Source: Phreatobacter sp.
Lineage (GTDB): Bacteria > Pseudomonadota > Alphaproteobacteria > Rhizobiales > Phreatobacteraceae
Length of the DNA stretch: 64,000 nucleotides
Direction of reading: 5' to 3'
Assembly: GCF_022843985.1 (NCBI RefSeq)
Contig: NZ_JALHMP010000012.1
Span: 35,471 to 99,470 of the forward strand
Shown: piece by piece, positions 10,102 through 28,335 of the stretch
Numbering within the stretch: position 1 is the first letter of the stretch
Layout of the letters: the number at the start of each line of letters is the position of its first letter
Translations under genes and position numbers: made by a program
Notes under the pieces: model-generated
The model's database searches: none
The model's input: only the letters and a program-made list of their open reading frames with translations
What the model was told of the DNA's origin: nothing

Positions 10102-11205
10102 ATGACCCAGGCCCTCCAGACCGCCGGCGCCCCCGAACTGACGGTGGTTGTGCCCAGCTACAACGAACGCGACAACGTGCCGGAACTGGCGCGCCGGCTC
10201 GACCATGTGCTGGCCGGCATCGCCTGGGAGATGATCGTCGTCGACGACGACAGCCCGGACGGTACCGCCGCTGTGGTCAAGGAGATCGCCCGGCGCGACC
10301 CCCGCGTGCGCTGTATCCGGAGGGTCGGACGGCGCGGGCTTGCGGGCGCCTGCATCGAGGGCATGCTCGCCTCCTCCGCGCCGGTCGTCGCCGTCATGGA
10401 CGGCGACCTGCAGCACGACGAGACCATCCTGCCGGCCATGCTCGACCAGATCCGGGCCGGGCGCGACCTCGTCGTCGCCAGCCGCAACATTGCCGGCGGC
10501 TCCAAGACGGAGGGGCTCTCGCCCATCCGCCAGGGGATTTCCGACCTCGGCCGACGCCTGTCGGCGATGATCCTCAAGGCGCCGCTGACCGACCCGATGT
10601 CCGGTTTCTTCATGATCCGCCGCGACATCGTCGAGGAGGTGGCGCCGCGCCTCTCCACCACCGGCTTCAAGATCCTCGCCGACATCGCGGCCTCGGTGCC
10701 CCGGGCGCCGAGCCTCGCCGAGGTCCCCTTCATCTTCCGCGAGCGCGTCCATGGCGAGAGCAAGCTCGACGCCAAGGTGGCGCTCGACTATGTCGGCTTC
10801 GTCCTCAACAAGCTGTCCGGCGGGTTCATTCCGCTGCGATTCATCTTCTTCGCCCTGGTCGGGGCCAGCGGCCTCGTCGTCCATCTGGCAGCACTTTATG
10901 CAGGCCTGACGTTCGGCCTGCGCTTCGAGTGGGCGCAGACGCTGGCGACGGTCGTCGCCATGACGTCGAACTTCGTCATCAACAATGAAATCACCTATCG
11001 CGACGCCCGACTGAAGGGCGCCAGCTTCCTGACCGGCCTGATGCTGTTCTATCTGGTCTGCAGCATCGGTGCCTTCGGCAATGTCGGCGTTGCCAGCTGG
11101 CTCTATGCCGGCGATGTCGACTGGTGGCTCTCGGGCCTCGCCGGGGCCGTCATGGGAGCCGTGTTCAACTATGCCGCCTCGGCCACCCTCGTCTGGCGCC
11201 GCTGA
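10102..11205 (+). CDS. GT2 polyprenol-phosphate glycosyltransferase fused to a GtrA-like domain
   Basis: VVVPSYNERDN, VVDDDSPDGT, MDGDLQHD, DPMSGFF, GFKIL, GESKL; hydrophobic GtrA-like C-terminus (RFIFFALVG...NFVINNEITY). Confidence 0.9.
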   Translation: MTQALQTAGAPELTVVVPSYNERDNVPELARRLDHVLAGIAWEMIVVDDDSPDGTAAVVKEIARRDPRVRCIRRVGRRGLAGACIEGMLASSAPVVAVMDGDLQHDETILPAMLDQIRAGRDLVVASRNIAGGSKTEGLSPIRQGISDLGRRLSAMILKAPLTDPMSGFFMIRRDIVEEVAPRLSTTGFKILADIAASVPRAPSLAEVPFIFRERVHGESKLDAKVALDYVGFVLNKLSGGFIPLRFIFFALVGASGLVVHLAALYAGLTFGLRFEWAQTLATVVAMTSNFVINNEITYRDARLKGASFLTGLMLFYLVCSIGAFGNVGVASWLYAGDVDWWLSGLAGAVMGAVFNYAASATLVWRR

Positions 11206-11206
11206 C

Positions 11207-12736
11207 ATGGCACCGGCCTTGCGCCCGGTCTGGGCCGGGAGCGCCGGTGCCGTCCTGGTTCTGGTCTGCGTCCTGACGGCGGTGCGGCTCTGGGCGGCCG
11301 GGTCCCTCGGCCTCGCCGCCGACGAAGCCTATTACCACCTGTGGTCGCAGAATCTCGCCCTCGGCTATTTTGACCACCCGCCGATGGTGGCACTGCTGAT
11401 CCGTGCCTCCACGGCGGTTTTCGGCGACACGGAATTCGGCATCCGCTGGCTCTCTGTGCTGCTGGCGGCGGCGGCGAGCCTCGGCGTCTGGCGTCTCGTC
11501 TGGCGCCTGACCGATGATCGGGCCGCGGCGATCGCCGGGGCGGGGATGGTGCAGGCGACGCTGTTCCTCGGCGCCGGCGCCATGCTGGTGACACCGGATA
11601 CGCCGCTCGTGCTGTTCTGGACGCTGGCGCTGCTCGCCCTGGTCGAGGTCTGGCGCACCGGCCGGGGTGTCTGGTGGCTGGCGGCGGGCCTTGCCGTCGG
11701 TCTTGCCTTCATCTCCAAATATACCGCCGTCTTCCTCGGCTTGGCCATCCTGCTCTGGATCGTGCTGGTGCCGGAGCTTCGCCGTTGGCTGCGCTCGCCC
11801 TGGCCCTATGCGGGCGGCATCCTCTGCCTCGCGGTCATGGCGCCGGTGCTGTGGTGGAACCTCGCCCATGGCGGCGCCTCCCTCACCAAGCAGTTCGGAC
11901 GCGCCGTTCCGAAGGCCTTCGACCCGCGCTTCGTGCCCGAATTCATGGCCGGGCAGGCGGCGCTGCTGACGCCGCTGATCGGGATCCTGGTGCTCTGGGG
12001 CCTGTGGGTGGTTGGCCGCCGCGCTCTCGACCAGCGCGAGCCGGGCGCCGTGCTGCTGACCGTGTCGGTCCTGCCGCTGCTCGCCTATCTCGTCTGGTAC
12101 GGCCTGTTCGACCGCGTCCAGGGCAACTGGACCGCCTGTCTTCTGCCGGCTTCCATCGCCGCCGCCGTGATCGGCGCAAAGGCCCTGCCGGCCGCTGCCC
12201 CCCGCGCCGCCGCAGTGCTGCGGGCGGGCCTGCGCTGGTCGGTGGTCAGCGGGGTGGTGCTTGGACTCCTGGTCATCGGCCATGCGGGTTTCCGGCTGGC
12301 GCCGCTGGCCATCGATCCGACCGGCCAGTTGCATGGCTGGCGGGCCGCTGCGGAGGCTGTCGAGGCGACGGCCATGCGGGCCGGGGCGGGCACGATCGGC
12401 ACGGCGAGCTACACGACGACGGCGCATCTGCGCTTCTACGGCACCGGTCGGCTGCCGGTGGTCCAGCTCGGCGAAAGGCTGCGCTATGCCATGGAAACGG
12501 CGCCCGATCCCGCGGCCATCGCCGCGCGGCCGGTACTGGTGGTGGTGGAGAGCCGCCGCGTGGCGGAAGTCAGCGCGCGGCTCGGGCAGTTCTACCGGGT
12601 GGTGGATCCGGCCGGGACGGTCGACCGGCTGTGGCGGCCGCGATTCGGGCTGACGGACCGGATGGACCAACTGGTGCTCTTCGTCGCCCGTGATCCGCTT
12701 CAGCCCGGCCTGCCCGATCTCACCGCGCCTCAGTAG
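11207..12736 (+). CDS. GT39/ArnT-PMT-like membrane glycosyltransferase
   Basis: DEAYYHLWSQNLALGYFDHPPMVA, TPDTPL, SKYTA; many TM segments. Confidence 0.88.
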   Translation: MAPALRPVWAGSAGAVLVLVCVLTAVRLWAAGSLGLAADEAYYHLWSQNLALGYFDHPPMVALLIRASTAVFGDTEFGIRWLSVLLAAAASLGVWRLVWRLTDDRAAAIAGAGMVQATLFLGAGAMLVTPDTPLVLFWTLALLALVEVWRTGRGVWWLAAGLAVGLAFISKYTAVFLGLAILLWIVLVPELRRWLRSPWPYAGGILCLAVMAPVLWWNLAHGGASLTKQFGRAVPKAFDPRFVPEFMAGQAALLTPLIGILVLWGLWVVGRRALDQREPGAVLLTVSVLPLLAYLVWYGLFDRVQGNWTACLLPASIAAAVIGAKALPAAAPRAAAVLRAGLRWSVVSGVVLGLLVIGHAGFRLAPLAIDPTGQLHGWRAAAEAVEATAMRAGAGTIGTASYTTTAHLRFYGTGRLPVVQLGERLRYAMETAPDPAAIAARPVLVVVESRRVAEVSARLGQFYRVVDPAGTVDRLWRPRFGLTDRMDQLVLFVARDPLQPGLPDLTAPQ

Positions 12737-18477: not shown

Positions 18478-18635
18478 GGGGTGCTCCACGCTCACGAGAT
18501 CATCGATAGGGCGGCGACACTAGCCGCGCGCGGCCTCGGCGCAAATCGCCCGCGGCGCTTTTCCCAAGGGAATCGCGCTGGAGCGAGGGTCAAGCGGGAG
18601 CGTCGCGATGGCGTGGTGACGCCCCGGCGGCCATG

Positions 18636-19406
18636 TCAGGCGCCGCGGGTGACCGTGATGGGCGCCTCCGGCCCCTTGTGTTCGCCGACCATGGCGACGA
18701 CGGCCGCTTCGGCGGCCGCCAGCAGCGATTCGTCCTTGGCGCGCAGCACGAGGCGGGTCCAGAAGCGGCCGTCCTGCATCATCGGGTAGGAGCCCATGAT
18801 GACGCCGGGGTGGGCCTTGGCGATGGCGGCATAGGGCGTGCCGATGTCGCCCTCGCGCAGGCCCGGCGCCTCGATGGAGACCTGGATCATCTTGGTGCCG
18901 GTCTTCAGGCGCGGAGAGACGACGTCCATCATGGCCTGCATCACCGAGGGCACGCCGGCCATGGTGACGACGTTGCCGATCATGAAGCCCGGGGCCTTGG
19001 ACACCGGGTTCTCGATGAGCTCGGCGCCGGCCGGAATGCGCGCCATGCGCAGGCGGGCCTCGTTCAGGTCCTTCTCTGGGATGCGCTCCAGCAGCATGGC
19101 GCGGGCGCGCGGGTCGACGTCGATGGAGACGCCGAAGGCCTTGGCGATGCAGTCGGCGGTGATGTCGTCGTGGGTCGGGCCGATGCCGCCGGTGGTGAAG
19201 ACGTAGCCGTACTTCGCCCGCAGCGTGTTGAGGGCGGGGACGATCTCGTCCTCCTCGTCGGGGACGACCCTGACCTCCTTCACGTCGATGCCGATGGCCG
19301 TGCAGTACTCGGCAATGTAGCCGATGTTCTTGTCCTTGGTGCGCCCGGAGAGGATCTCGTCGCCGATGACGAGGATGGCGGCGGTGACGGTGGTCGGCTC
19401 GGTCAT
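18636..19406 (-). CDS. CinA-like molybdopterin-binding (MoCF_biosynth) protein
   Basis: ILVIGDEILSGRTKDKN, VFTTGGIGPTHDDIT, MAGVPSVMQAM. Confidence 0.9.
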   Translation of the reverse strand: MTEPTTVTAAILVIGDEILSGRTKDKNIGYIAEYCTAIGIDVKEVRVVPDEEDEIVPALNTLRAKYGYVFTTGGIGPTHDDITADCIAKAFGVSIDVDPRARAMLLERIPEKDLNEARLRMARIPAGAELIENPVSKAPGFMIGNVVTMAGVPSVMQAMMDVVSPRLKTGTKMIQVSIEAPGLREGDIGTPYAAIAKAHPGVIMGSYPMMQDGRFWTRLVLRAKDESLLAAAEAAVVAMVGEHKGPEAPITVTRGA

Positions 19407-19510
19407 GATGGTGCTCCGGGATGAGCCCGGAGGTAGAGCGCGGCGCGACCTGCGGCAAGGGCCCTGCAGGCGGTGAGGCGCGGAATGCTCCCCTGCGCTG
19501 CGGCTTGGTT

Positions 19511-20335
19511 CTACTGCACCTGCACCTGCCGCGAGGCCTGGTCGACCACCACCTTCACGGTCAGGAACTCGCCCTCGCCGCCGTGGCGCGAGCCGCGGAT
19601 GGGCGCGGCATTGAGATAGTCGAGGCCGCAGGCGATGCGGATGTGCTGCTCGGTCGGGCACTGGCCGTTGGCGGCGTCGAAACCGACCCAGCCGAGGCCC
19701 TCGACATGGGCTTCAGCCCAGGCGTGGCCGGCCTCCTGGTCCACCGTGCCGTCGGCATGGAGGAAATAGCCGCCGACATAGCGGGCAGGGATGTTGAGGT
19801 GGCGCGCCGCGGCGATGAAGATATGGGCGAAGTCCTGACAGACGCCGCGCTTCAGCGCGAAGGCCTCCGCCGCCGTGGTGGCGGAATGGGTTGGATCCTT
19901 GTCGAAGGTGATGTCGCGGGCGAGGTCGTCGAGCAGGGCGTGGAGCGTCGAGAGCCGGTCGCCCGGCCGCTCGCGGGCCTCGGCATAGGCGCGGATCTCG
20001 CCGTCGGCGGTGGTCAGGTCGGTGCCGCGCAGGTAGAGGCCGGGCGGAAACCGCTCGATGGCGCCGCGCACCACGCCGGCGGTGTCGGACGTCTCGACAA
20101 GGCCATCGACGCGGACGGTGAGGGTCTGCACCGGCCCGGTGCAGGAGAAGGTGTGGGTGATGTTGCCGAAGGCGTCCTCGTGGGCATCGAGGCGGCAGTC
20201 CTGGTCGACGTCGATGCGCCAGGTCGCGACGTGCTGGCCCTCGTAGTTGCGCGGGGTCAGCCGCAGCGTCTGGATCACCGCATGGGCGGGGACGGCATAG
20301 CTGTAGATGGTCTCGTGGGCGATGCGGATGCGCAT
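19511..20335 (-). CDS. Transglutaminase-like protein (Bact_transglu_N + core)
   Basis: I.HET.YSY, LRLTPR, GVCQDFAHIF, SHAW-type GHAWAE, GWVGFD, GLDY..AAPIRG. Confidence 0.93.
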   Translation of the reverse strand: MRIRIAHETIYSYAVPAHAVIQTLRLTPRNYEGQHVATWRIDVDQDCRLDAHEDAFGNITHTFSCTGPVQTLTVRVDGLVETSDTAGVVRGAIERFPPGLYLRGTDLTTADGEIRAYAEARERPGDRLSTLHALLDDLARDITFDKDPTHSATTAAEAFALKRGVCQDFAHIFIAAARHLNIPARYVGGYFLHADGTVDQEAGHAWAEAHVEGLGWVGFDAANGQCPTEQHIRIACGLDYLNAAPIRGSRHGGEGEFLTVKVVVDQASRQVQVQ

Positions 20336-20348
20336 GGCGGCCGCCCGC

Positions 20349-21293
20349 TCAGGTCAGATATTGCTGGGTGATGGCGGCACCCAGCCGGTTGTTCTCGGTG
20401 ATGAAGTCCGAGACGAATTCGTGCAGGCCGGACTGGAAGATATCCTCGATCCGGGCGCTTTCGAGCTTCGTCCGGGTGGCACGGGCAGCGCGCTGGGCCG
20501 GGCCCTGGCGGCCATAGGCGAGCGACAGGCTGTCGAGGTTGCGCACGATGCTCTCGTAGCAGGCGGCGAGCGAGCGCGGCATCTGGTCGTTGAGGATCAG
20601 GAGGTCGGCGACCAGCCAGGGCTTCAGGCTCTCCTTGTAGACCCAGTGATAGGCGGTCAGCGCCGAGACGGCCCTGAGGATCGCCGACCACTGGAAATAG
20701 TCCAGCGACCCGCCGACCTGCTCGGCGCCGGGCAGCAGCACGTGATATTTCACGTCGAGGATGCGGGCGGTGTTGTCGGCCCGCTCGATCATCACACCGA
20801 GGCGCGAGAACCAGTAGCCGTCGGACCGCAGCATGGTGCGATAGGCCGAGCCGTCGAACCGCAGGCCCGTTTCCTTCACGAAAGAGAGGAAATTGGCCAG
20901 GTGTTCGTCCTGGTTGAGGCCGCTCGCCCGGTATTTCGACAGTTCCAGCCATGCGGCGTTGATGGCGTCCCACATCTCCACCGTCAGCGCCGTGCGCACC
21001 GAGCGCGCATTGGTGCGGGCCACCTCGAAACAGGAGCGGATGGAGGAGGGGTTGTCGGGCGAGAAGGCGAGGAAGTCGATCACCGTCTCGCGGGTCGCCT
21101 TGTCATGCGCCTGGTAGAAGAGATGGGCGCACCCGGCGGTGGCGACCGCCGACTCCCATTCGTTCGACGTCCCGGCATAGGCGGAGGGCAGATTGGCGAG
21201 GCGGGTCGAGGCCTCGATGATGCGGGCGAGATATTCGGCCCGTTCGACATAGCGGGCCAGCCAGAAGAGATTGTCGGCGGTACGGGAGAGCAT
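20349..21293 (-). CDS. Alpha-E domain protein (DUF403)
   Basis: MLSRTADNLFWLARYVERAE, ARTNARSVR, ERADNTARILDVKY, PRSL. Confidence 0.93.
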   Translation of the reverse strand: MLSRTADNLFWLARYVERAEYLARIIEASTRLANLPSAYAGTSNEWESAVATAGCAHLFYQAHDKATRETVIDFLAFSPDNPSSIRSCFEVARTNARSVRTALTVEMWDAINAAWLELSKYRASGLNQDEHLANFLSFVKETGLRFDGSAYRTMLRSDGYWFSRLGVMIERADNTARILDVKYHVLLPGAEQVGGSLDYFQWSAILRAVSALTAYHWVYKESLKPWLVADLLILNDQMPRSLAACYESIVRNLDSLSLAYGRQGPAQRAARATRTKLESARIEDIFQSGLHEFVSDFITENNRLGAAITQQYLT

Positions 21294-21307
21294 GGGTTCC
21301 GCCTATC

Positions 21308-22735
21308 TCACGAGTCCAGGACCCAGGTGTCCTTGGTGCCGCCGCCCTGGCTGGAATTGACCACCAGGGAGCCCTCCTTCAGCGCCACGCGGGTGAGGCC
21401 GCCGGGGACGATGCGCACCTTGTCGCGTCCGGTCAGGACGAAGGGCCTGAGGTCGACATGGCGGGGCGCGACGCCCTCCTCGACCAGGGTCGGGCAGGTG
21501 GAGAGGGCGAGCGTCGGCTGGGCGATGAAATTCGACGGGTCCTTCACCAGCTTGTGGCGGAACAGTTCGATCTCGGCCGCCGCGGCCTTAGGCCCGATCA
21601 GCATGCCGTAGCCGCCGGAGCCGTGAACCTCCTTGACGACGAGCTCGGGCAGATGGTCGAGGACATATTTCAGCTCGTCCGGCGCGCGGCAGCGCCAGGT
21701 CGGGACATTCTTCAGGATCGGCTCCTCGCCGAGATAGAATTTCACGATCTCCGGCATGTAGCTGTAGACGGCCTTGTCGTCGGCGACGCCGGTGCCGACG
21801 GCATTGGCGAGCGTGACATTGCCGGCATGGTAGGCCGACATCAGGCCCGGCACACCGAGGGCCGAATCCGGACGGAACACCAGCGGATCGAGGAAATCAT
21901 CGTCGAGGCGGCGGTAGATGACGTCGACACGCTTGGGACCCTCGGTCGTGCGCATGTAGACCACGTCGGCCTTGACGAAGAGATCGCGGCCCTCGACCAG
22001 TTCGACGCCGAGCTTGTCGGCGAGGAAGGTGTGCTCGTAATAGGCCGAATTGAAAAGGCCCGGCGTCAGCAGCACGCAGGTCGGGTCGGAGGAGGCCGAG
22101 CGCGGCGCCACCGACTTCATCGTGGCGAGCAGGTCATCGGTGTAGTTCTCCACCGGCGCGACGCGGTGCTGCGAGAAGAGCTCGGGGAAGAGGCGGATCA
22201 TCACCTCGCGGTTCTCCAGCATGTAGGAGACCCCGGAGGGGGTGCGGGCATTGTCCTCGAGCACATAGAACGTGTCGGCGTCGACGCGGACGATGTCGAT
22301 GCCGGCGATCATCACATAGATGCCGTGGGGCACCGGCTGCTGGTTCATTTCCGGCCGGAAGGCAGGATTCTGGTAGACGAGGTCCTCAGGAACGATGCCG
22401 GCGCGCAGGATCTCGCGCTTTGTATAGACGTCGCCGAGGAAGGCGTTGATGGCGCGCACGCGCTGCGTCAGGCCTTTCGACAGCCGCACCCATTCGTCGT
22501 TGGTGAGGACGCGCGGGATGACGTCGAACGGGATCAGGCGTTCGGTCGAGGCGGCGTCGCCATAGACCGCGAAGGTGATGCCGATGCGGCGGAACAGCGC
22601 CTCGGCCTCGCGCGAGCGCGTTGCGAGCAGGTCCGTCGGTATGGTCTTCAACCAGCGAGCCAGGGTTTCGTAGGCGGGGCGGACCGCACCGTCCGCGAGG
22701 TTCATTTCATCGAAGATCGGTGCATCGCCTGCCAT
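21308..22735 (-). CDS. Circularly permuted type 2 ATP-grasp protein (DUF404/407)
   Basis: GITFAVYG, ERLIPFD, LEDNARTPSGVSY, VIYRRLDDDFLDP, HVDLRPF, GGLTRVAL.EGSLVVNSSQGGGTKDTWVL. Confidence 0.95.
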   Translation of the reverse strand: MAGDAPIFDEMNLADGAVRPAYETLARWLKTIPTDLLATRSREAEALFRRIGITFAVYGDAASTERLIPFDVIPRVLTNDEWVRLSKGLTQRVRAINAFLGDVYTKREILRAGIVPEDLVYQNPAFRPEMNQQPVPHGIYVMIAGIDIVRVDADTFYVLEDNARTPSGVSYMLENREVMIRLFPELFSQHRVAPVENYTDDLLATMKSVAPRSASSDPTCVLLTPGLFNSAYYEHTFLADKLGVELVEGRDLFVKADVVYMRTTEGPKRVDVIYRRLDDDFLDPLVFRPDSALGVPGLMSAYHAGNVTLANAVGTGVADDKAVYSYMPEIVKFYLGEEPILKNVPTWRCRAPDELKYVLDHLPELVVKEVHGSGGYGMLIGPKAAAAEIELFRHKLVKDPSNFIAQPTLALSTCPTLVEEGVAPRHVDLRPFVLTGRDKVRIVPGGLTRVALKEGSLVVNSSQGGGTKDTWVLDS

Positions 22736-22877
22736 TGACGGCTCTAGTCCCCTCTGGAAGACGAAGCGTGGTCCTTCTCTGATGGAACGATCCTGACGCT
22801 TCGCCGACAAGCTAGCGGCAAATCACGTCGCAAGGGAAGGGGGCTTTCGCAGATGCACAAGCGCCGCCGCGAACGGG

Positions 22878-23213
22878 TCACGTGTCGCGGCCGGCGATCT
22901 CGACCACCAGCGCACCGGGCGGCAGCAGGCCGGCGAGGGCCGCGGCGATGGCGCGGCCATCCGCGATATAGGCCGCCTCGGCGTCGCTGGAGGGAAAGCG
23001 GCTCGCGAGCGGATCGTCGCGATCATAGATCGCCTGGAAGACGGCGTCCCAGTCGTTGATCCGCGCCACGATCCCGTCGGGAAGGCCGAGGCATTCGGGG
23101 TCGAGGTTGTCGCCGGTCTCGTGGTCCCAGGTGGGCCAGCATTCCCATTCGGGGGCGAGGCGCAGCCGGCGCGGGAGCATTGCGGAGGGATCGGCGGAGG
23201 GATCGGCGGACAT
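22878..23213 (-). CDS. Hypothetical protein (start 23213 or 23180)
   Basis: Acidic/Trp-rich LRLAPEWECWPTWD...LDP..LGLP....RINDW; typical codon usage; same strand as the ATP-grasp operon. Confidence 0.7.
   Translation of the reverse strand: MSADPSADPSAMLPRRLRLAPEWECWPTWDHETGDNLDPECLGLPDGIVARINDWDAVFQAIYDRDDPLASRFPSSDAEAAYIADGRAIAAALAGLLPPGALVVEIAGRDT
23183..23210. repeat. 12-bp tandem repeat (SADP x2 at the ORF N-terminus)
   Basis: cggagggatcgg cggagggatcgg cgga. Confidence 0.8.
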
Positions 23214-23315
23214 TGCTAGAAGCTAGCACCGCCAGCGGCCCCACCGGAACCGCGCCATTGCTCCGGCCGGGGGCGGAGGCTATGGCAGGGTCCGCTTGTC
23301 ACCACCGGAGACCCC

Positions 23316-24074
23316 ATGGCCGTCAAGGTCGCCGCCCTCTATCGCTTCGCCCCCCTGCCGGACTGCGCCGATCTCGTCGCCCCGCTCCGGGAGCTGTGCG
23401 CGGAGCTCGGCATCAGGGGGACGCTGCTGCTGGCGCCGGAAGGGATCAACGGTACGGTGGCCGGCACCGACGAGGCGATCGACGACCTCGTCGCGAAGCT
23501 CTCCGGCGGCTGGGTTTTCGGCAACCGGCTCGCCGGCATGGAGCTGAAGTTTTCGACTGCCTCCGCCTTGCCGTTCGGCCGGCTGAAAGTGAGGGTGAAG
23601 CGCGAGATCGTCGCCTTCGACGGTGGCGCGACCGATCCCTCGCAGCGCGTCGGCACCTATGTGGCGCCCGCCGACTGGAACGCGCTGATCGCCGATTCCG
23701 AGACTGTCGTGATCGACACGCGCAACGCCTTCGAGGTGGCGATCGGAACCTTCGTCGGGGCACGCGATCCGGGAACCGTCAGCTTCGGCCAGTTCAGGGA
23801 CTATGTCGCCCGCGAGCTCGATCCCGCCCGGCACCGGCGCATCGCCCTGTTCTGCACCGGCGGCATCCGCTGCGAAAAGGCCAGCGCCTATCTCATCGAC
23901 CAGGGATTTGCCGAGGTGCATCATCTCAAAGGCGGCATCCTCGCCTATCTTGAGCAGGTGCCGGAGCGCGAGAGCCTGTGGCGCGGCGGCTGTTTCGTCT
24001 TCGACGGCCGGGTCGCCCTCGGTCATGGCCTCGCCGAGGCGCCGGAGACCGCGGAGGGGATCGAACTGGCATGA
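23316..24074 (+). CDS. trhO: Rhodanese-related tRNA U34 hydroxylase (UPF0176)
   Basis: GTLLLAPEGINGT, RLKVRVKREIV, IDTRNAFE..IGTF, LFCTGGIRCEKAS, HLKGGILAY, CFVFDGRV. Confidence 0.9.
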   Translation: MAVKVAALYRFAPLPDCADLVAPLRELCAELGIRGTLLLAPEGINGTVAGTDEAIDDLVAKLSGGWVFGNRLAGMELKFSTASALPFGRLKVRVKREIVAFDGGATDPSQRVGTYVAPADWNALIADSETVVIDTRNAFEVAIGTFVGARDPGTVSFGQFRDYVARELDPARHRRIALFCTGGIRCEKASAYLIDQGFAEVHHLKGGILAYLEQVPERESLWRGGCFVFDGRVALGHGLAEAPETAEGIELA

Positions 24075-24286
24075 GCGAAATCTCCGACCTCGCCGCCCGT
24101 CTCGAAGCCCTGGAGATCAAGGCAGCCTATCAGGACCAGACGATCGAGGACCTGAACGCCACGATCACCGCCCAATGGGCCGAGCTGACGCGGTTGCAAC
24201 GACTCGTGGCACGGCTCGAGGACCAGTTGCGCGAGGCCCAGAACGCCGGCCCGCAGGGACCCGAGCCGCCGCCTCCCCATTACTGA
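24071..24286 (+). CDS. slyX: SlyX family protein
   Basis: RLEALEIKAAYQDQTIEDLN coiled coil, C-terminal EPPPPHY; ATGA overlap with trhO. Confidence 0.92.
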   Translation: MSEISDLAARLEALEIKAAYQDQTIEDLNATITAQWAELTRLQRLVARLEDQLREAQNAGPQGPEPPPPHY

Positions 24287-24394
24287 TCCCGCGGCGCGCC
24301 GGCTTCGCCCTGTGGAGCAACCCACCCGCAACGCCTGCTGCGTTGCTCATCACGTTGGCCGCGGCTACACGGTTGGGTTCCTGGAGAATCGCTG

Positions 24395-25150
24395 ATGACC
24401 TATTGTTGCGGCATCCTCGTGCGCGACGGGCTGGTGATGATTGCCGACACCCGCACCAACGCGGGCCTCGACAACATCTCGACCTTCCGCAAGCTGCACG
24501 TTTTCCAGAAGCCCGGCGAGCGGGTCATGGCGCTTGCCTCCGCCGGGAATCTGTCGATCACCCAGTCCGTTCTCGGCTTCCTTCACGAAGGCCTGCCCAA
24601 CGAGGAGACCGGCGAACTGGAAACCATTCTCAACGCGCCGACCATGTTCCAGGCGGCGCAGCGGGTGGGCCGGGCCATCCGCGAGGTCAGGCGCATCGAC
24701 GGTCCGGGGCTCGAGGAGGATGGCATCAAGTTCGAGGCCTCGTTCCTCTTCGGCGGACAGATCAAGGGCCGGTCGCTGCGCCTGTTCATGGTCTATGCCG
24801 CCGGCAACTATATCGAATGCACGGTCGATACGCCCTATCTGCAGATCGGCGAGCACAAATACGGCAAGCCGATCCTCGACCGCGCCATCAAGTTCGACAC
24901 CAACCTGAACGATGCGCTGAAGATCGGTCTGGTCTCGATGGATTCGACCATGCGCTCCAATCTCGGCGTGGGCATGCCCATCGACATCGCGGTGATGCCG
25001 CGGGGCGACGCCTTCCTGCAGACCCATTACCGGATTGAGCCCGGCGAGCCCTATTTCCATGACCTGCGCGAGCGTTGGTCGGCGGCGCTGCGCAAGGCGC
25101 ATATGGACATTCCGCCGCCGCCTTATTCCGGCTCCAACGTGGTGAAGTGA
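24395..25150 (+). CDS. Anbu proteasome-type (Ntn) peptidase
   Basis: N-terminal MTYC (Thr1), ADTRTNAGLDNISTFRKL, SAGNLSITQ, QIGEHKYGKPILDR, SMDSTMRSNLGVG.PID. Confidence 0.92.
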   Translation: MTYCCGILVRDGLVMIADTRTNAGLDNISTFRKLHVFQKPGERVMALASAGNLSITQSVLGFLHEGLPNEETGELETILNAPTMFQAAQRVGRAIREVRRIDGPGLEEDGIKFEASFLFGGQIKGRSLRLFMVYAAGNYIECTVDTPYLQIGEHKYGKPILDRAIKFDTNLNDALKIGLVSMDSTMRSNLGVGMPIDIAVMPRGDAFLQTHYRIEPGEPYFHDLRERWSAALRKAHMDIPPPPYSGSNVVK

Positions 25151-25156
25151 GCGGCT

Positions 25157-27370
25157 TCAGCGCACCGTGAACCGCGCCGTCAGCGTCGCGTTCGAATCAT
25201 TCCCGACATAGATCTCGTATGCACCGGGCTCGACGCGATAGCGCGCCTGGTCGTCGTGGAAACCCAGGCTTCGCACAGGAATGGCGAAGCGGACGGTCGC
25301 GTGGCCGCCGGCGCCGACCTCGACCTTCTCGAAGAAGCGCAACTGGCGGACCGGCCGCGAGCGCGAGCCGACCATCTGCCTGACATAGACCTGGACGACC
25401 TCTTTGCCCGCCGGTCCGGAGACATTCGAGACGCGAACGGAGCCGGAGACCGTGCCGTTGCGCGCCACGCGCGGGGCGTCCAGCGTCAGCGCGTCGAAGG
25501 TGAAGCGTGAGAAGGACAGGCCGAAACCGAAGGGGTAGAGCGGCTCGAGCTTCTCGTCGGTATAGCCGGTCTCATAGCGGGCATTGGTCAGGCGCGGACG
25601 GCCGGTCGGCAGCGCGTCGTAGTAGATCGGCACTTGGCCGGTGGCGCGCGGGAAGGTCATGGGCAGCTTGCCCGAGGGATTGGTGCGGCCGGTCATGACC
25701 TCGGCGAGGGCGGTGCGGCCCTCAGTGCCGAGGTGGAAGGCCTGGAGGATGGCCGCAACGCGATCGGCAAAGCGTGTCAGCACGAAGGGGCGCGTCGTGT
25801 GGAGGATGACAACGACCGGCTTGCCGGTGGCAATCAGCGCGTCGAGCAGGGTCTGCTGAACCGGCGGCAGGTCGAGATGGGCGCGCGAGGTGCCCTCGCC
25901 GATCTGTTCGCAATCCTCGCCGAGCATGACGACGACGACATCGGCGGCTTCCGCCGTACGCACGGCACCGGCCGTGTCGCCGGCAGCGAGGTTGCAATGG
26001 GTCGCGAGGCCGGGCGCGAAGCTGATCGCCACGTCGGGGCCGAGCAGGCGCGAGAGTTCGTCCGGCAGTTTCGGCGGACGGACCCGGGGCAGGCCGGCAT
26101 TGTCAGAATACTGCCAGTCCTCCTGATGGGTCGCGGCACCGCCGACGACGGCGATGGAACGCACGGACGGACGCAGCGGGAGAATCGCCTCGCGGTTGCG
26201 CAGCATGACGATGGATTCGCGCGCCACGGCGAGGGAATCGGCCCTGGCGGCGGGCGTCGCCATGTCACGCGCAGCGGTCGTTGGGTCGAAGGGCGGTTCC
26301 TCGAAAAGACCCATATGGAACTTGACGCGCAGCACGCGGCGGACCGCCTCGTCGAGGGCGGCGGCCGGTACCCGGCCGGCACGGATCTCGTCGGCGAGAT
26401 GGGCGTCATAGGCGCCCGACATCATGTCCATGTCGACGCCGGCGAGGAAGGCCTTGCGTGCCGCCTCGGCCCTGTCGGCCGCCATGCCGTGATTGATCAG
26501 TTCACGCACCGAATCGAAGTCGGAGACGACGAAACCGCGGAAACCGAGACGGCCTTTCAGGATGTCGGTGACGAGGGTGCGGTCGCCGGTCGCGGCGATG
26601 CCGTTCATGGCGCTCAGCGAGGTCATGACGGTGAAGGTGCCGGCGGCAATCGCCGCCCGGAATGCCGGCATCTGGTAGTCCCAAAGTTCAGAAACCGGGA
26701 TCCAGACGCTGTTATAGTCACGTCCACCCTCGGCAGCGCCGTAACCGATGAAGTGCTTGGCGGAGGTGGCGAGGCCGCCGCGATGGTAGCCGGCGACGCG
26801 CGCGGCGGCGACGACGGAGGCCAGGTGCACGTCCTCGCCGGCGCCCTCCATGTTGCGGCCCCAACGGGCATCGCGCGTCATGTCGATCATCGGCGCAAAG
26901 GTCCAGTTGATGCCGGTGGCACGGGCCTCGCGGGCAGACCAATAGGAGGCGAGTTCGACCAGGCGCGGGTTGAAGGTGGCGGCCTGGCCGATCGGCTGTG
27001 GGAAATAGGTGGCAAAGCCGTTGATGGCATCGAGGCCGAGGATCAGCGGAATCTGCAGCCGCGACCGGGCCACCTGCGCCCGGACGGCGGCGATCTCGGT
27101 GGGTTCGGTGAAATTCATCACGGCGCCGGTGCGGCCCTGGGCGATCCACTCGGGCCGGAAGTCGTCGCCGCGGCCGCGCAGGTTGAGCTGGCCGATCTTC
27201 TCGGCTGTGGTCATGCGCGCGAGCAGGGCATCGATGCGTCGCTCGATCGCCCGCGCCTCGGCGCCGGTCTTCCAGGCGAGAGCCGGGGGGGCGGGGGGCT
27301 GCTGGGCGAGGGCCGGCAGGGGGGCGATGGCGAGGAGAAGCGGGAGCAGGCGGCGGGTCAGGACATTCAT
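25157..27370 (-). CDS. Periplasmic GH3 beta-glucosidase (BglX-like)
   Basis: Signal peptide; RDARWGRNMEG.GED, AKHFIGYG, GFRGFVVSDF (nucleophile), GKLPMTFPR, PLYPFGFGLS, Fn3-like C-terminus. Confidence 0.93.
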   Translation of the reverse strand: MNVLTRRLLPLLLAIAPLPALAQQPPAPPALAWKTGAEARAIERRIDALLARMTTAEKIGQLNLRGRGDDFRPEWIAQGRTGAVMNFTEPTEIAAVRAQVARSRLQIPLILGLDAINGFATYFPQPIGQAATFNPRLVELASYWSAREARATGINWTFAPMIDMTRDARWGRNMEGAGEDVHLASVVAAARVAGYHRGGLATSAKHFIGYGAAEGGRDYNSVWIPVSELWDYQMPAFRAAIAAGTFTVMTSLSAMNGIAATGDRTLVTDILKGRLGFRGFVVSDFDSVRELINHGMAADRAEAARKAFLAGVDMDMMSGAYDAHLADEIRAGRVPAAALDEAVRRVLRVKFHMGLFEEPPFDPTTAARDMATPAARADSLAVARESIVMLRNREAILPLRPSVRSIAVVGGAATHQEDWQYSDNAGLPRVRPPKLPDELSRLLGPDVAISFAPGLATHCNLAAGDTAGAVRTAEAADVVVVMLGEDCEQIGEGTSRAHLDLPPVQQTLLDALIATGKPVVVILHTTRPFVLTRFADRVAAILQAFHLGTEGRTALAEVMTGRTNPSGKLPMTFPRATGQVPIYYDALPTGRPRLTNARYETGYTDEKLEPLYPFGFGLSFSRFTFDALTLDAPRVARNGTVSGSVRVSNVSGPAGKEVVQVYVRQMVGSRSRPVRQLRFFEKVEVGAGGHATVRFAIPVRSLGFHDDQARYRVEPGAYEIYVGNDSNATLTARFTVR

Positions 27371-27552
27371 CGGGGGCGCGCGGCTCCTCAGGGCATGCGG
27401 CCGGGCATGGGTTGCAACCGGCAGCGAAGGCATCAGCTTCCTAGCCGTGTTCTCACGCGTTCCGCAACGGCCCCCCAGCCGCGGCCGGGCGTCACGCCTG
27501 TTCCGCCGGCTGGCGGGTTCCGCAGGCCGCAACCTCCGGCTATAGCTCCGCC

Positions 27553-28335
27553 ATGATCGCGTCCTCCTCCCGCCTGCCCAAGCAACGCTTTGCCTCCGAC
27601 GGCGTCGAGATCGCCTATTTCGACACGGGGAAGGGCGATCCGGTCCTCTGCATCCATGGCTTCGCCTCCAATGCCCATATCAACTGGACCTATCCGGGCT
27701 GGGTGGACACGCTGACCAGGGCCGGCCGGCGCGTCATCGCGCTCGACAATCGCGGCCATGGCGATTCGGACAAGCTCTACGATCCCGCCGCCTACCACAC
27801 GACGCTGATGGCCGAGGATGCACGGGCGCTGCTCGACCATCTTGGCATCGAGAGCACGGTGGTGCTCGGCTATTCCATGGGGTCGCGCATCACGGCGTTC
27901 CTCGCTCAGCGCCATCCCGGCCGGGTAAAGGCGGCGATCATGGGCGGCCTCGGCATCAAGCTCATCGACGGGGTCGGCCTGCCGGAGACCATCGCCGAGG
28001 CGCTGGAGGCGGAGACGCTGGAGGAAGTCACCGACCCGCAGGGCCGCATGTTCCGCGCCTTCGCCATGCAGACCCAGTCGGACCGGCGGGCGCTGGCCGC
28101 CTGCATCCGCGGCTCGCGCAACCTGATGAGCCGCGAGGAGGCCGCCTCGATCGCCTGTCCGGTGCTCATCGCGGTGGGGACGAAGGATGAGATTGCCGGC
28201 GCGCCGGAGCCGCTGGCCGCGATCATCCCCAAGGGGGAGGTGCTTTCGATCCCGGATCGCGATCATATGCCGGCCGTGGGCGACAAGGTCTTCAAGGCCG
28301 GTGCGCTCGCTTTCCTCGCCCGGATCGCCGCCTGA
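27553..28335 (+). CDS. Alpha/beta hydrolase
   Basis: IHGFAS, DNRGHG.S, GYSMG nucleophile elbow, RDHM. Confidence 0.9.
   Translation: MIASSSRLPKQRFASDGVEIAYFDTGKGDPVLCIHGFASNAHINWTYPGWVDTLTRAGRRVIALDNRGHGDSDKLYDPAAYHTTLMAEDARALLDHLGIESTVVLGYSMGSRITAFLAQRHPGRVKAAIMGGLGIKLIDGVGLPETIAEALEAETLEEVTDPQGRMFRAFAMQTQSDRRALAACIRGSRNLMSREEAASIACPVLIAVGTKDEIAGAPEPLAAIIPKGEVLSIPDRDHMPAVGDKVFKAGALAFLARIAA

Follow-up and report, generated by a model that had tools for sequence, protein, structure and literature searches.

The canonical operon of the Anbu system was reportedly treated by Valas and Bourne in 2008 and by Iyer et al. in 2009. The composition of this operon, its induction under nitrogen limitation and the absence of any known substrate have been documented (PMC5666114, PMC6376114), with Pseudomonas aeruginosa, P. 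putida, Yersinia bercovieri and Hyphomicrobium among its hosts (Fuchs et al. 2017, PMC5666114; Piasecka et al. 2018, PMC6376114). The ATP-grasp protein of the operon hydrolyses ATP, but no peptidase activity of Anbu and no substrate were found (PMC6376114). Judging from what is known of the protein families, the ATP-grasp/Alpha-E pair would make an amide or isopeptide bond, which the two hydrolases, a transglutaminase-like protein (TGase) and Anbu, would process or remove.

Here, a locus of this kind (19511-25150) is described within a 64,000-nucleotide stretch of Phreatobacter sp. DNA, referred to as the window. Its Anbu gene set belongs to a known system and is an ordinary, intact copy of it, arranged in a way specific to the lineage. 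In our reading, the locus is very probably a complete and functional member of the Anbu system, in which the trio of ATP-grasp, Alpha-E and TGase genes was inverted in the Phreatobacter ancestor and to which the genes in the resulting gap are unrelated.

Gene content of the locus

The genes of the locus and its flanks are as follows:

18636-19406, minus strand: MoCF_biosynth/CinA-like gene (PF00994 at 1e-31, and PF24102, on the frame 18636-19661)
19511-20335, minus strand: transglutaminase-like cysteine hydrolase, TGase (PF01841 at 1e-21, N-terminal Bact_transglu_N PF08379 at 1.8e-21)
20349-21293, minus strand: Alpha-E protein (PF04168 at 4e-95, full length)
21308-22735, minus strand: circularly permuted ATP-grasp amidoligase (PF14403 at 5e-166, and PF04174)
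23316-24074, plus strand: trhO, oxygen-dependent tRNA U34 hydroxylase (NF001133, 281 bits, cut-off 170)
24071-24286, plus strand: slyX (PF04102 at 3.5e-22; 4-nt overlap with the trhO stop)
24395-25150, plus strand: Anbu, proteasome-beta-like Ntn hydrolase (PDB Anbu structures)
25157-27532, minus strand: GH3 beta-glucosidase, BglX-like (PF00933, PF01915, PF14310)

Family profile and structure matches placed every gene named in an earlier note on this DNA where that note had put it, and the four families to which it had assigned ATP-grasp, Alpha-E, TGase and Anbu are correct. The 1.66 kb that it gave as the spacing corresponds to 1659 nt between the ATG of ATP-grasp and that of Anbu, the two genes being divergent.

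The catalytic residues are in place. Anbu begins with MTYCCG, the Thr directly following the Met, and retains Thr2, Asp18 and Lys33 when aligned to the solved Anbu structures (family criterion Thr1, Asp17, Lys32/33); in a phmmer search of the PDB it matches 5LOY, 5NYJ, 5NYF, 5NYW and 5LOX at E values from 3e-84 to 5e-63, which groups it with Anbu and not with HslV or the 20S beta subunit, and generic proteasome models match it only weakly. TGase keeps the triad Cys166, His204 and Asp220 (alignment to PDB 3ISR). The ATP-grasp protein matches PDB 3N6X at E 2e-205, and the Alpha-E gene, for whose product a sequence search returned no solved structure, starts 14 nt after the ATP-grasp gene. The ATP-grasp start at 22735 is backed by full-length tblastn alignments in 15 genomes; an alternative TTG start at 22810 was rejected as an unconserved in-frame extension, since relatives carry 1-nt indels there. 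The start of the MoCF-type gene was placed at the ATG of MTEPTTV, and a 312-aa ORF overlapping that gene (18520-19458) is an off-frame artefact.

No AAA+ unfoldase lies beside Anbu, its neighbours being the MoCF-type gene, TrhO, SlyX, the GH3 glucosidase and an alpha/beta hydrolase. The GH3 gene forms the right flank in Phreatobacter and is unrelated to the Anbu system: of the 15 loci compared in this genus, 14 have it adjacent or close to Anbu (the contig of L033 ends inside ATP-grasp, and in L041, the 15th locus, the gene is 1.2 kb downstream), whereas it is not beside Anbu in relatives outside the genus.

Each genome has a single Anbu gene, including the source genome (G000), estimated to be 100% complete, in which a second copy that might serve the trio, as considered in the earlier note, was looked for and not found. 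At dS of 0.35-0.6, dN/dS is 0.05-0.14 in Anbu and 0.05-0.17 in ATP-grasp; by this sequence measure, Anbu is under strong purifying selection.

Orientation of the trio

In the relatives, that is, other families and genera of the order, the earlier statement that the four genes usually form one operon is borne out. The order MoCF(-) followed by ATP-grasp, Alpha-E, TGase and Anbu, all on the plus strand and with MoCF divergently upstream of ATP-grasp, was found in 57 of 90 relatives, and the same four genes with MoCF not in range in a further 14. In 85 relatives an Anbu hit has a TGase gene as neighbour; the two genes are co-directional in every case and at most 1 kb apart in 79.

The order in the window is MoCF(-), TGase(-), Alpha-E(-), ATP-grasp(-) and then Anbu(+), and it recurs in all Phreatobacter loci with enough flanking sequence; the back-to-back layout of Anbu and the trio is present in all 19 informative genomes of the genus. 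Since neither the MoCF-type flank nor Anbu has changed its place, it is the trio that was flipped and not Anbu, which the earlier note had taken to be the inverted gene. In the Phreatobacter ancestor, the three-gene ligase block was inverted, together with its own promoter region, between the MoCF-type gene and Anbu, so that one operon of four genes became two back-to-back units. In three outgroup families, the genes following Anbu are homologues of those at 2.5-7.8 kb of the window, beyond the opposite end of the locus, and therefore more than one rearrangement has hit the Anbu neighbourhood.

Such a layout could also mean that Anbu and the trio have become functionally uncoupled in Phreatobacter, their adjacency being a historical remnant and the parts working alone or with another ligase system. 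The two halves form distinct transcription units, the promoters predicted for them differ in type, and published pull-downs gave no stable complex of Anbu with the other operon proteins (PMC6376114). Moreover, the source genome holds a second, Anbu-less system (G000 C1:72655-79394), made up of a 1117-aa transglutaminase, a fused ATP-grasp-Alpha-E protein and a small TGase, which might supply the alternative partner. We nevertheless regard uncoupling as very unlikely. All 19 informative genomes retain the adjacency, with dS reaching 0.6, ATP-grasp, where found, is never more than 2.2 kb from Anbu in the Phreatobacter genomes examined, and purifying selection is equally strong on Anbu and on ATP-grasp. 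Further, in G011 the whole divergent pair has been re-inverted relative to MoCF; this second rearrangement left Anbu beside the trio, while the neighbourhood and what fills the gap have been altered again and again. The preferred reading is thus that of one system whose halves are now divergent.

Genes in the gap and transcription of Anbu

The earlier note had placed Anbu, inverted, behind trhO-slyX and suggested possible new partners. Stated in full, this alternative holds that Anbu moved behind trhO-slyX and now belongs to a trhO-slyX-anbu operon, with new partners, for example through a link to tRNA modification or oxygen, and with regulation independent of the trio. The three genes are indeed co-directional, only 108 nt separate slyX from Anbu, and this spacer is not unusually structured and contains no called terminator. 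The arrangement is also common, being found in 13 of the 19 informative Phreatobacter genomes. In a tree of the four proteins, G008, which bears trhO-slyX, groups with species having a direct gap (support 0.867), and therefore trhO-slyX occupancy could be ancestral to the genus and then lost, rather than a later insertion.

However, the remaining 6 of the 19 have the split layout without trhO-slyX. In four (G003, G010, G018 and G011) the gap measures 194-236 nt, and in G014 and G019 it is filled by LuxR-type genes; other genomes carry a 243-aa ORF or a small ORF there. The gene trhO is single-copy, and it is located elsewhere in G003, G010 and G018, where the trhO-slyX pair occupies another locus (slyX adjoining trhO at that other site too, as in G018), and is absent from G014 and G019. 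Neither TrhO nor SlyX was found within 8-9 kb of Anbu in relatives outside Phreatobacter; the Anbu-trhO-slyX linkage, for which a synteny survey had been proposed, is therefore not constant within the genus and was not encountered beyond it. In addition, trhO and slyX, with dN/dS of 0.19-0.42, evolve 2-4 times faster than Anbu. We conclude that trhO-slyX and the other gap genes are not part of the Anbu system, and the idea of a new operon with new partners appears most improbable. The 0.2-kb divergent gap is a variable site, occupied by trhO-slyX in the source lineage and by LuxR-type genes in others.

The same intergenic region bears a strain-specific insertion in the source genome:

22851-23312, no strand: insertion of 462 bp; in close strains, contigs join 22850 directly to 23313

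It contains a 111-aa ORF (22878-23213, minus strand) missed by the earlier note. The ORF belongs to a small uncharacterised family with homologues of 86-122 aa; the Devosia gene, for instance, follows a molybdopterin oxidoreductase. The same locus lacks it in 14 other Phreatobacter genomes.

As the trio and Anbu are divergent, at least two transcription units must exist, and a candidate promoter for Anbu lies in front of it:

24343-24370, plus strand: Anbu promoter-like box TTGCTC-N16-CTACAC, 52 nt before the ATG

This sigma-70-like box is found at -50 to -55 in all 15 Phreatobacter loci compared, with or without trhO-slyX upstream, a conservation that also speaks against a trhO-slyX-anbu operon. 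Of 69 canonical Xanthobacteraceae-like operons, 37 have a comparable box before Anbu (shuffle mean 0.23). A generic E. coli-type scan of the slyX-Anbu spacer called no promoter and no terminator, TTGCTC-N16-CTACAC included. Anbu would thus be expressed from its own predicted promoter, to which read-through from slyX may add, so that co-transcription with trhO-slyX may occur; separate transcription of Anbu and the trio is plausible on these predictions. Of the decoupled regulation suggested earlier, the existence of at least two divergent units stands, but not its novelty, the Anbu-proximal box being present in many canonical operons. Contigs from RNA libraries were either too sparse or resembled DNA, their depth being flat over 6.8 kb on both strands.

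Upstream region of the ATP-grasp gene

Two elements precede the trio:

22806-22840, minus strand: promoter-type block CCTTCCCT-N11-TTGCCGCTAGCTTGTC, homologous to the sigma-54 module of relatives, with the -24 GG lost
22760-22805, minus strand: predicted hairpin in the 5' leader of the ATP-grasp mRNA, immediately before the ribosome-binding site GAGGGGA

Of 51 Xanthobacteraceae-like loci, 49 have a sigma-54 box, TGGC-N7-TTGC, at ATP-grasp. The module C(C)TTCC[AC]T-N11-TGGCGCGAAGCTTGCA, homologous to the Phreatobacter block, is present in eight relatives, where the sigma-54 box is 20-37 nt from the ATG. The block CCTTCCCT-N11-TTGCCGCTAGCTTGTC has identical spacing in 15 of 15 Phreatobacter loci, in none of which TGG[CT]-N7-T[TC]G[CT] occurs at the conserved place, the homologous box there being TTGCCGCTAGCTTGTC; rpoN was found in the source genome. 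The nitrogen-limitation link of the Anbu system rests on the P. putida data together with the sigma-54 boxes of the relatives. In Phreatobacter, the motifs suggest that a derivative of the relatives' sigma-54 promoter, with the -24 GG lost, drives the trio, and that the genus-specific 5' hairpin comes after this derived promoter.

The hairpin was located by RNAalifold at alignment columns 71-115, with 95% of cells paired in each of two helices; for the three-helix structure 96% of cells are paired, versus at most 55% in slid controls. The window sequence folds at -27.4 kcal/mol (z -2.65 against shuffles).

It could be asked whether the approximately 115-nt block before ATP-grasp is a ligand-sensing or otherwise regulatory RNA, with CCCCUU acting as an anti-Shine-Dalgarno sequence on GAGGGG, a hairpin lying between the two, and with this RNA replacing sigma-54/NtrC control. 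RNAalifold does pair these two strings, in columns that are almost invariant, and compensatory changes are seen at three pairs of the inner hairpin; a by-eye reading also finds the CTTCC box upstream of the relatives' sigma-54 box complementary to a GGAAGGG-type ribosome-binding site. On the other hand, the outer helix never varies and hence offers no covariation evidence, and the hairpin of L045 is no more stable than shuffles. In relatives, the CCTTCCCT box precedes the -24 element of the sigma-54 promoter and therefore falls outside their transcript. The element is confined to one genus, its covariance model matching Phreatobacter only, once per genome, and a cmscan of 22600-24500 against Rfam 15 with E up to 5 returned only a chance CRISPR-DR match inside trhO, and hence no known family such as the glutamine riboswitch. 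A regulatory RNA is accordingly considered unlikely, and the upstream region is better read as a promoter of sigma-54 ancestry followed by a predicted leader hairpin.

Comparison with known systems

The Phreatobacter locus has the same four protein families as the canonical Anbu operon, with the catalytic residues kept, no AAA+ partner and one Anbu per genome. It differs in layout: the canonical genes are co-directional, whereas here the trio is inverted and divergent from Anbu, with unrelated genes in the gap. It also differs in its promoter region: the canonical operon of close relatives has an intact sigma-54 -24/-12 box before ATP-grasp, which Phreatobacter lacks.

The Xanthobacteraceae-like operons (Pseudolabrys, Afipia, Bradyrhizobium and Pseudorhodoplanes; L072-L144) share with it the MoCF-type flank, the CTTCC box, set 11 nt before the promoter element of ATP-grasp, and a TTGC...TA-type promoter-like box before Anbu. 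Their ATP-grasp promoter follows the sigma-54 consensus, whereas Phreatobacter has lost the GG and has a hairpin of about 45 nt between the box and the ribosome-binding site.

Finally, the Anbu-less system of the source genome is built from the same ligase and TGase-like families, with 32% identity for both ATP-grasp and TGase. Unlike the locus in the window, it has its ligase and Alpha-E parts fused, includes the extra 1117-aa transglutaminase, has no Anbu and is unlinked.

Gene content of the locus

By its gene content the locus belongs to the known Anbu system, which is widespread and for which no substrate has been reported since 2008, and its layout is lineage-specific. The genes concerned lie in a window with a G+C content of 66-72%, as follows:

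18636-19406, minus strand, MoCF/CinA-like gene
19511-20335, minus strand, transglutaminase-like protein
20349-21293, minus strand, Alpha-E
21308-22735, minus strand, circularly permuted ATP-grasp
22878-23213, minus strand, 111-aa ORF
23316-24074, plus strand, TrhO
24071-24286, plus strand, SlyX
24395-25150, plus strand, Anbu, matching solved Anbu structures
25157-27532, minus strand, GH3 glucosidase

The Anbu protein, in which Thr2, Asp18 and Lys33 are retained, matches these structures with E values of 3e-84 to 5e-63; Cys166, His204 and Asp220 are kept in the transglutaminase-like protein (alignment to 3ISR), and the ATP-grasp matches 3N6X (E 2e-205). Family and structure matches, catalytic residues and the distance of 1659 nt from the ATP-grasp ATG to the Anbu ATG bear out the arrangement and gene identities described in the earlier note, namely a minus-strand trio of ATP-grasp, Alpha-E and transglutaminase-like genes (the ligase block) beside a plus-strand Anbu.

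Two gene models were rejected. The Arg/Pro-rich ORF of 312 aa at 18520-19458 (minus strand), considered as a neighbour gene, is a wrong frame of the MoCF-type gene; its tblastn matches in relatives stem from an off-frame translation conserved along with the DNA, and conserved off-frame ORFs of this kind can mislead ORF-based synteny comparisons of GC-rich genomes. A TTG-extended start of ATP-grasp at 22810 was likewise discarded, its frame being broken by 1-nt indels in relatives.

A second Anbu elsewhere that served the trio, named in the earlier note as an argument against its own reading, was not found: the genome of the window's strain (4.33 Mb, estimated 100% complete) holds a single Anbu, and this test was therefore negative. 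The second Alpha-E match of the genome, outside the window at contig C1:72655-79394, belongs to a separate Anbu-less ligase system with two transglutaminases, of 1117 aa and 296 aa, and a fused CP-ATP-grasp-Alpha-E of 835 aa. In another Phreatobacter genome, only 74% complete, Anbu lies in three adjacent pieces in different frames (G020:C2:1388755-1389509), which are due either to assembly-error frameshifts or to a pseudogene.

Inversion of the ligase block

Loci were compared over 8-9 kb on each side of Anbu, the window proteins being mapped by tblastn. The comparison covered 15 other Phreatobacter genomes, 17 genomes from the order's other families and 73 additional relatives, mostly Xanthobacteraceae-like. 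Outside the genus, the order MoCF(-) / ATP-grasp(+), Alpha-E(+), TGase(+), Anbu(+), where TGase is the transglutaminase-like gene, is found in 57 of 90 loci; a further 14 of the 90 have the four genes likewise with MoCF not in range, the remainder being mostly truncated contigs. Wherever a Phreatobacter locus includes sufficient flanking sequence, the order is MoCF(-), TGase(-), Alpha-E(-), ATP-grasp(-) / Anbu(+). Since MoCF and Anbu both keep their place and strand, the inverted block is the trio and not Anbu, and the claim that Anbu had been inverted is to be corrected in this sense.

The most divergent member of the genus (G011, known from a 2389-nt contig, locus L071) has the order ATP-grasp(-) / 236 nt / Anbu(+), MoCF(+), a layout explained by a single additional inversion of the divergent pair as a whole; the pair of Anbu and trio has thus remained together through a second rearrangement. 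A caveat is that the genes following Anbu in three outgroup families are homologues of those at 2.5-7.8 kb in the window, and the wider neighbourhood has therefore been rearranged more than once. No repeats marking breakpoints were found at the inversion boundaries, where only GC-rich chance matches occur.

The four genes of the system remain under purifying selection. Between the window and six other members of the genus (dS 0.35-0.6 for the four genes), dN/dS was 0.05-0.14 for Anbu, 0.05-0.17 for ATP-grasp, 0.03-0.11 for Alpha-E and 0.13-0.35 for the transglutaminase-like gene, with 0.19-0.42 for trhO and slyX. Thus, the constraint on Anbu equals that on the ligase, and their adjacency has survived while the surroundings changed, both of which support, and do not prove, a retained functional link between Anbu and the trio.

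Genes between ATP-grasp and Anbu

The content of the gap varies within the genus, as listed below.

Contents of the gap between ATP-grasp and Anbu in Phreatobacter genomes
No genes, 194-236 nt: G003, G010, G018, G011
trhO-slyX: 13 genomes, including that of the window
One or two LuxR-type regulator genes, no trhO-slyX: G014, G019
LuxR-type gene and trhO-slyX: G005
243-aa ORF between slyX and Anbu: G006
462-bp insertion carrying the 111-aa ORF: the window's strain only

The trhO gene is single-copy. In G003, G010 and G018 it is located elsewhere, its surroundings being syntenic with part of contig C2 in the window's genome, and is accompanied there by slyX in at least G018; it is absent from G014 and G019. 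No TrhO or SlyX was found by tblastn within 8-9 kb on either side of Anbu in any locus outside the genus. The variable gap, the presence of trhO elsewhere or its absence, and the lack of linkage outside the genus therefore indicate that trhO-slyX is not a partner of the system; the earlier suggestion of new partners does not hold for this pair, as the divergent layout is kept without it in G003, G010, G018, G011, G014 and G019. In a tree of the four locus proteins, the trhO-slyX-bearing G008 groups with the direct-gap species (support 0.867). The pair would either have moved into the gap a single time, when diversification of the genus was already under way, or have been present early and later lost or moved.

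The 111-aa ORF, a member of a small family of unannotated proteins 86-122 aa long, was also rejected as a new partner, being strain-specific and found in Devosia behind a molybdopterin oxidoreductase gene. The Devosia homologue (L145:6001-6261) begins at the stop codon of this 697-aa gene, suggesting an accessory subunit of the oxidoreductase.

In three Phreatobacter species the ATP-grasp leader is immediately preceded, on its own strand, by LuxR-family genes (L039:6995-7720, L042:5229-5957, and L043:9951-10673 and 10851-11579). They combine a GerE-type HTH with an autoinducer-binding-like N-terminal part, share 52-73% identity with one another and have no homologue in the window's genome. Their role may be local regulation, or they may simply be cargo of the gap.

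Predicted promoter regions

The promoter motifs, namely the sigma-54 box of the relatives and the sigma-70-like box before Anbu, are the main leads offered by the locus. In 15 of 15 Phreatobacter loci the motif TTGCNN-N16-YTAYNN is found at -50 to -55 from the Anbu ATG, followed by GGAGAA, and is kept behind trhO-slyX, behind a LuxR-type gene and behind the ATP-grasp leader alike. A comparable sigma-70-like box is present in the TGase-Anbu spacer (90 nt before the Anbu start) in 37 of 69 Xanthobacteraceae-like canonical operons (shuffle mean 0.23), the typical form being TTGCCG-N17-GCTATAA, a strong alphaproteobacterial sigma-70-like box. This suggests that ordinary canonical operons hold an internal Anbu promoter and that Anbu is partly expressed independently in them. 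In view of the similar box in these relatives, Anbu's own promoter is probably older than the inversion, and a pre-existing promoter would have rendered the inversion harmless.

A generic scan called no sigma-70 consensus promoter; its three terminator-like sites all fall within coding sequence, and chance would give about as many. No terminator was called between slyX and Anbu, so read-through is possible. The inverted repeat GCAACGC-CTGCT-GCGTTGC (24327-24345, plus strand) shares bases with the -35-like hexamer of the box before Anbu and is partly conserved in the species that carry trhO-slyX; an operator is one possible role, a weak terminator lacking a U tract another.

Upstream of ATP-grasp, a consensus sigma-54 -24/-12 box (TGGC-N7-TTGC, 20-130 nt before the start) is found in 49 of 51 Xanthobacteraceae-like loci, for example as TGGCGCGAAGCTTGCA, TGGCCTGAAGCTTGCA or TGGCCCAAGCCTTGCT. 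It occurs in only 1 of 14 other families and at a conserved place in no Phreatobacter locus; RpoN is encoded in the window's genome. Phreatobacter carries instead, upstream of ATP-grasp, a block of about 115 nt conserved far beyond the level of synonymous sites, with the core CCTTCCCT-N11-TTGCCGCTAGCTTGTC, whose 11-nt spacing is shared with C(C)TTCC[AC]T-N11-TGGCGCGAAGCTTGCA of eight relatives. In these eight a CTTCC box, complementary to a GGAAGGG-type ribosome-binding site, lies exactly 11 nt upstream of the sigma-54 box. The core appears to descend from the sigma-54 promoter, having lost the -24 GG, and its present role may be that of a sigma-70-type promoter in which TAGCTT is the -10 element.

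In G011 a near-consensus sigma-54 box (TGGCACTTGCCCTGCA) is kept about 45-60 nt before the ATP-grasp ATG. The same locus carries the inverted repeat TTGCC-N11-GGCAA, which is found again in the form TTGCC-N11-GGCGA in the other Phreatobacter leaders.

Downstream of the core box and ahead of the ribosome-binding site, Phreatobacter leaders contain an additional hairpin of about 45 nt (22760-22805). Paired cells make up 95% in each of its two helices and 96% in the three-helix structure that was tested, the latter against at most 55% in slid controls, and compensatory changes occur in three pairs. The hairpin has an MFE of -27.4 kcal/mol (z -2.65) in the window, and the fold is unremarkable in L045, one of the Anbu loci compared. 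A covariance model of the leader (R1) matches only Phreatobacter, once per genome; among 201 genomes from 111 genera of the order, the leader was found in 6 genomes, all of this single genus, and an Rfam scan of the intergenic regions, this leader included, gave no match.

RNA libraries were also searched. Oligo-dT-labelled wastewater RNA-seq (runs X18-X20, window 18500-27600) yielded a 6.8-kb contig of a related strain, with flat depth across divergent and convergent genes and on both strands, so these runs carry DNA-like material; soil and eukaryote-host transcriptome runs gave short, low-depth contigs only, and none of the libraries revealed an operon structure.

A doubtful reading of these motifs is that control of the Phreatobacter trio was rewired from an ancestral, nitrogen-type sigma-54 promoter to another input acting through the block at 22806-22852 and the genus-specific 5' hairpin, with Anbu on its own older promoter plus, in the window's lineage, read-through from trhO-slyX. 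If this were true, the genus would offer a natural experiment, with the ligase genes and Anbu each active under conditions of their own, and could reveal whether Anbu acts on the ligase product.

Relation to known Anbu systems

The Anbu operon of P. putida is induced under nitrogen limitation and the ATP-grasp of Y. bercovieri hydrolyses ATP; no peptidase activity, substrate or stable complex of Anbu was found in published work (PMC5666114, PMC6376114). The Phreatobacter genes would form two divergent transcription units, the ATP-grasp/Alpha-E pair making an amide or isopeptide bond at the expense of ATP, while the Cys hydrolase and the Thr-1 hydrolase Anbu would process or remove the ligase product. 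The present locus adds nothing to the chemistry of the system. Natural variants separating its parts could be a useful handle, of which this one is modest: ligase block and Anbu appear to tolerate two transcription units while adjacent and equally constrained, and such a tolerated split argues for a functional link without need of co-translation or fixed stoichiometry. Compared with the canonical Anbu operon, in which ATP-grasp, Alpha-E, TGase and Anbu are all co-directional, the gene content is the same, whereas the Phreatobacter layout is split and back-to-back.
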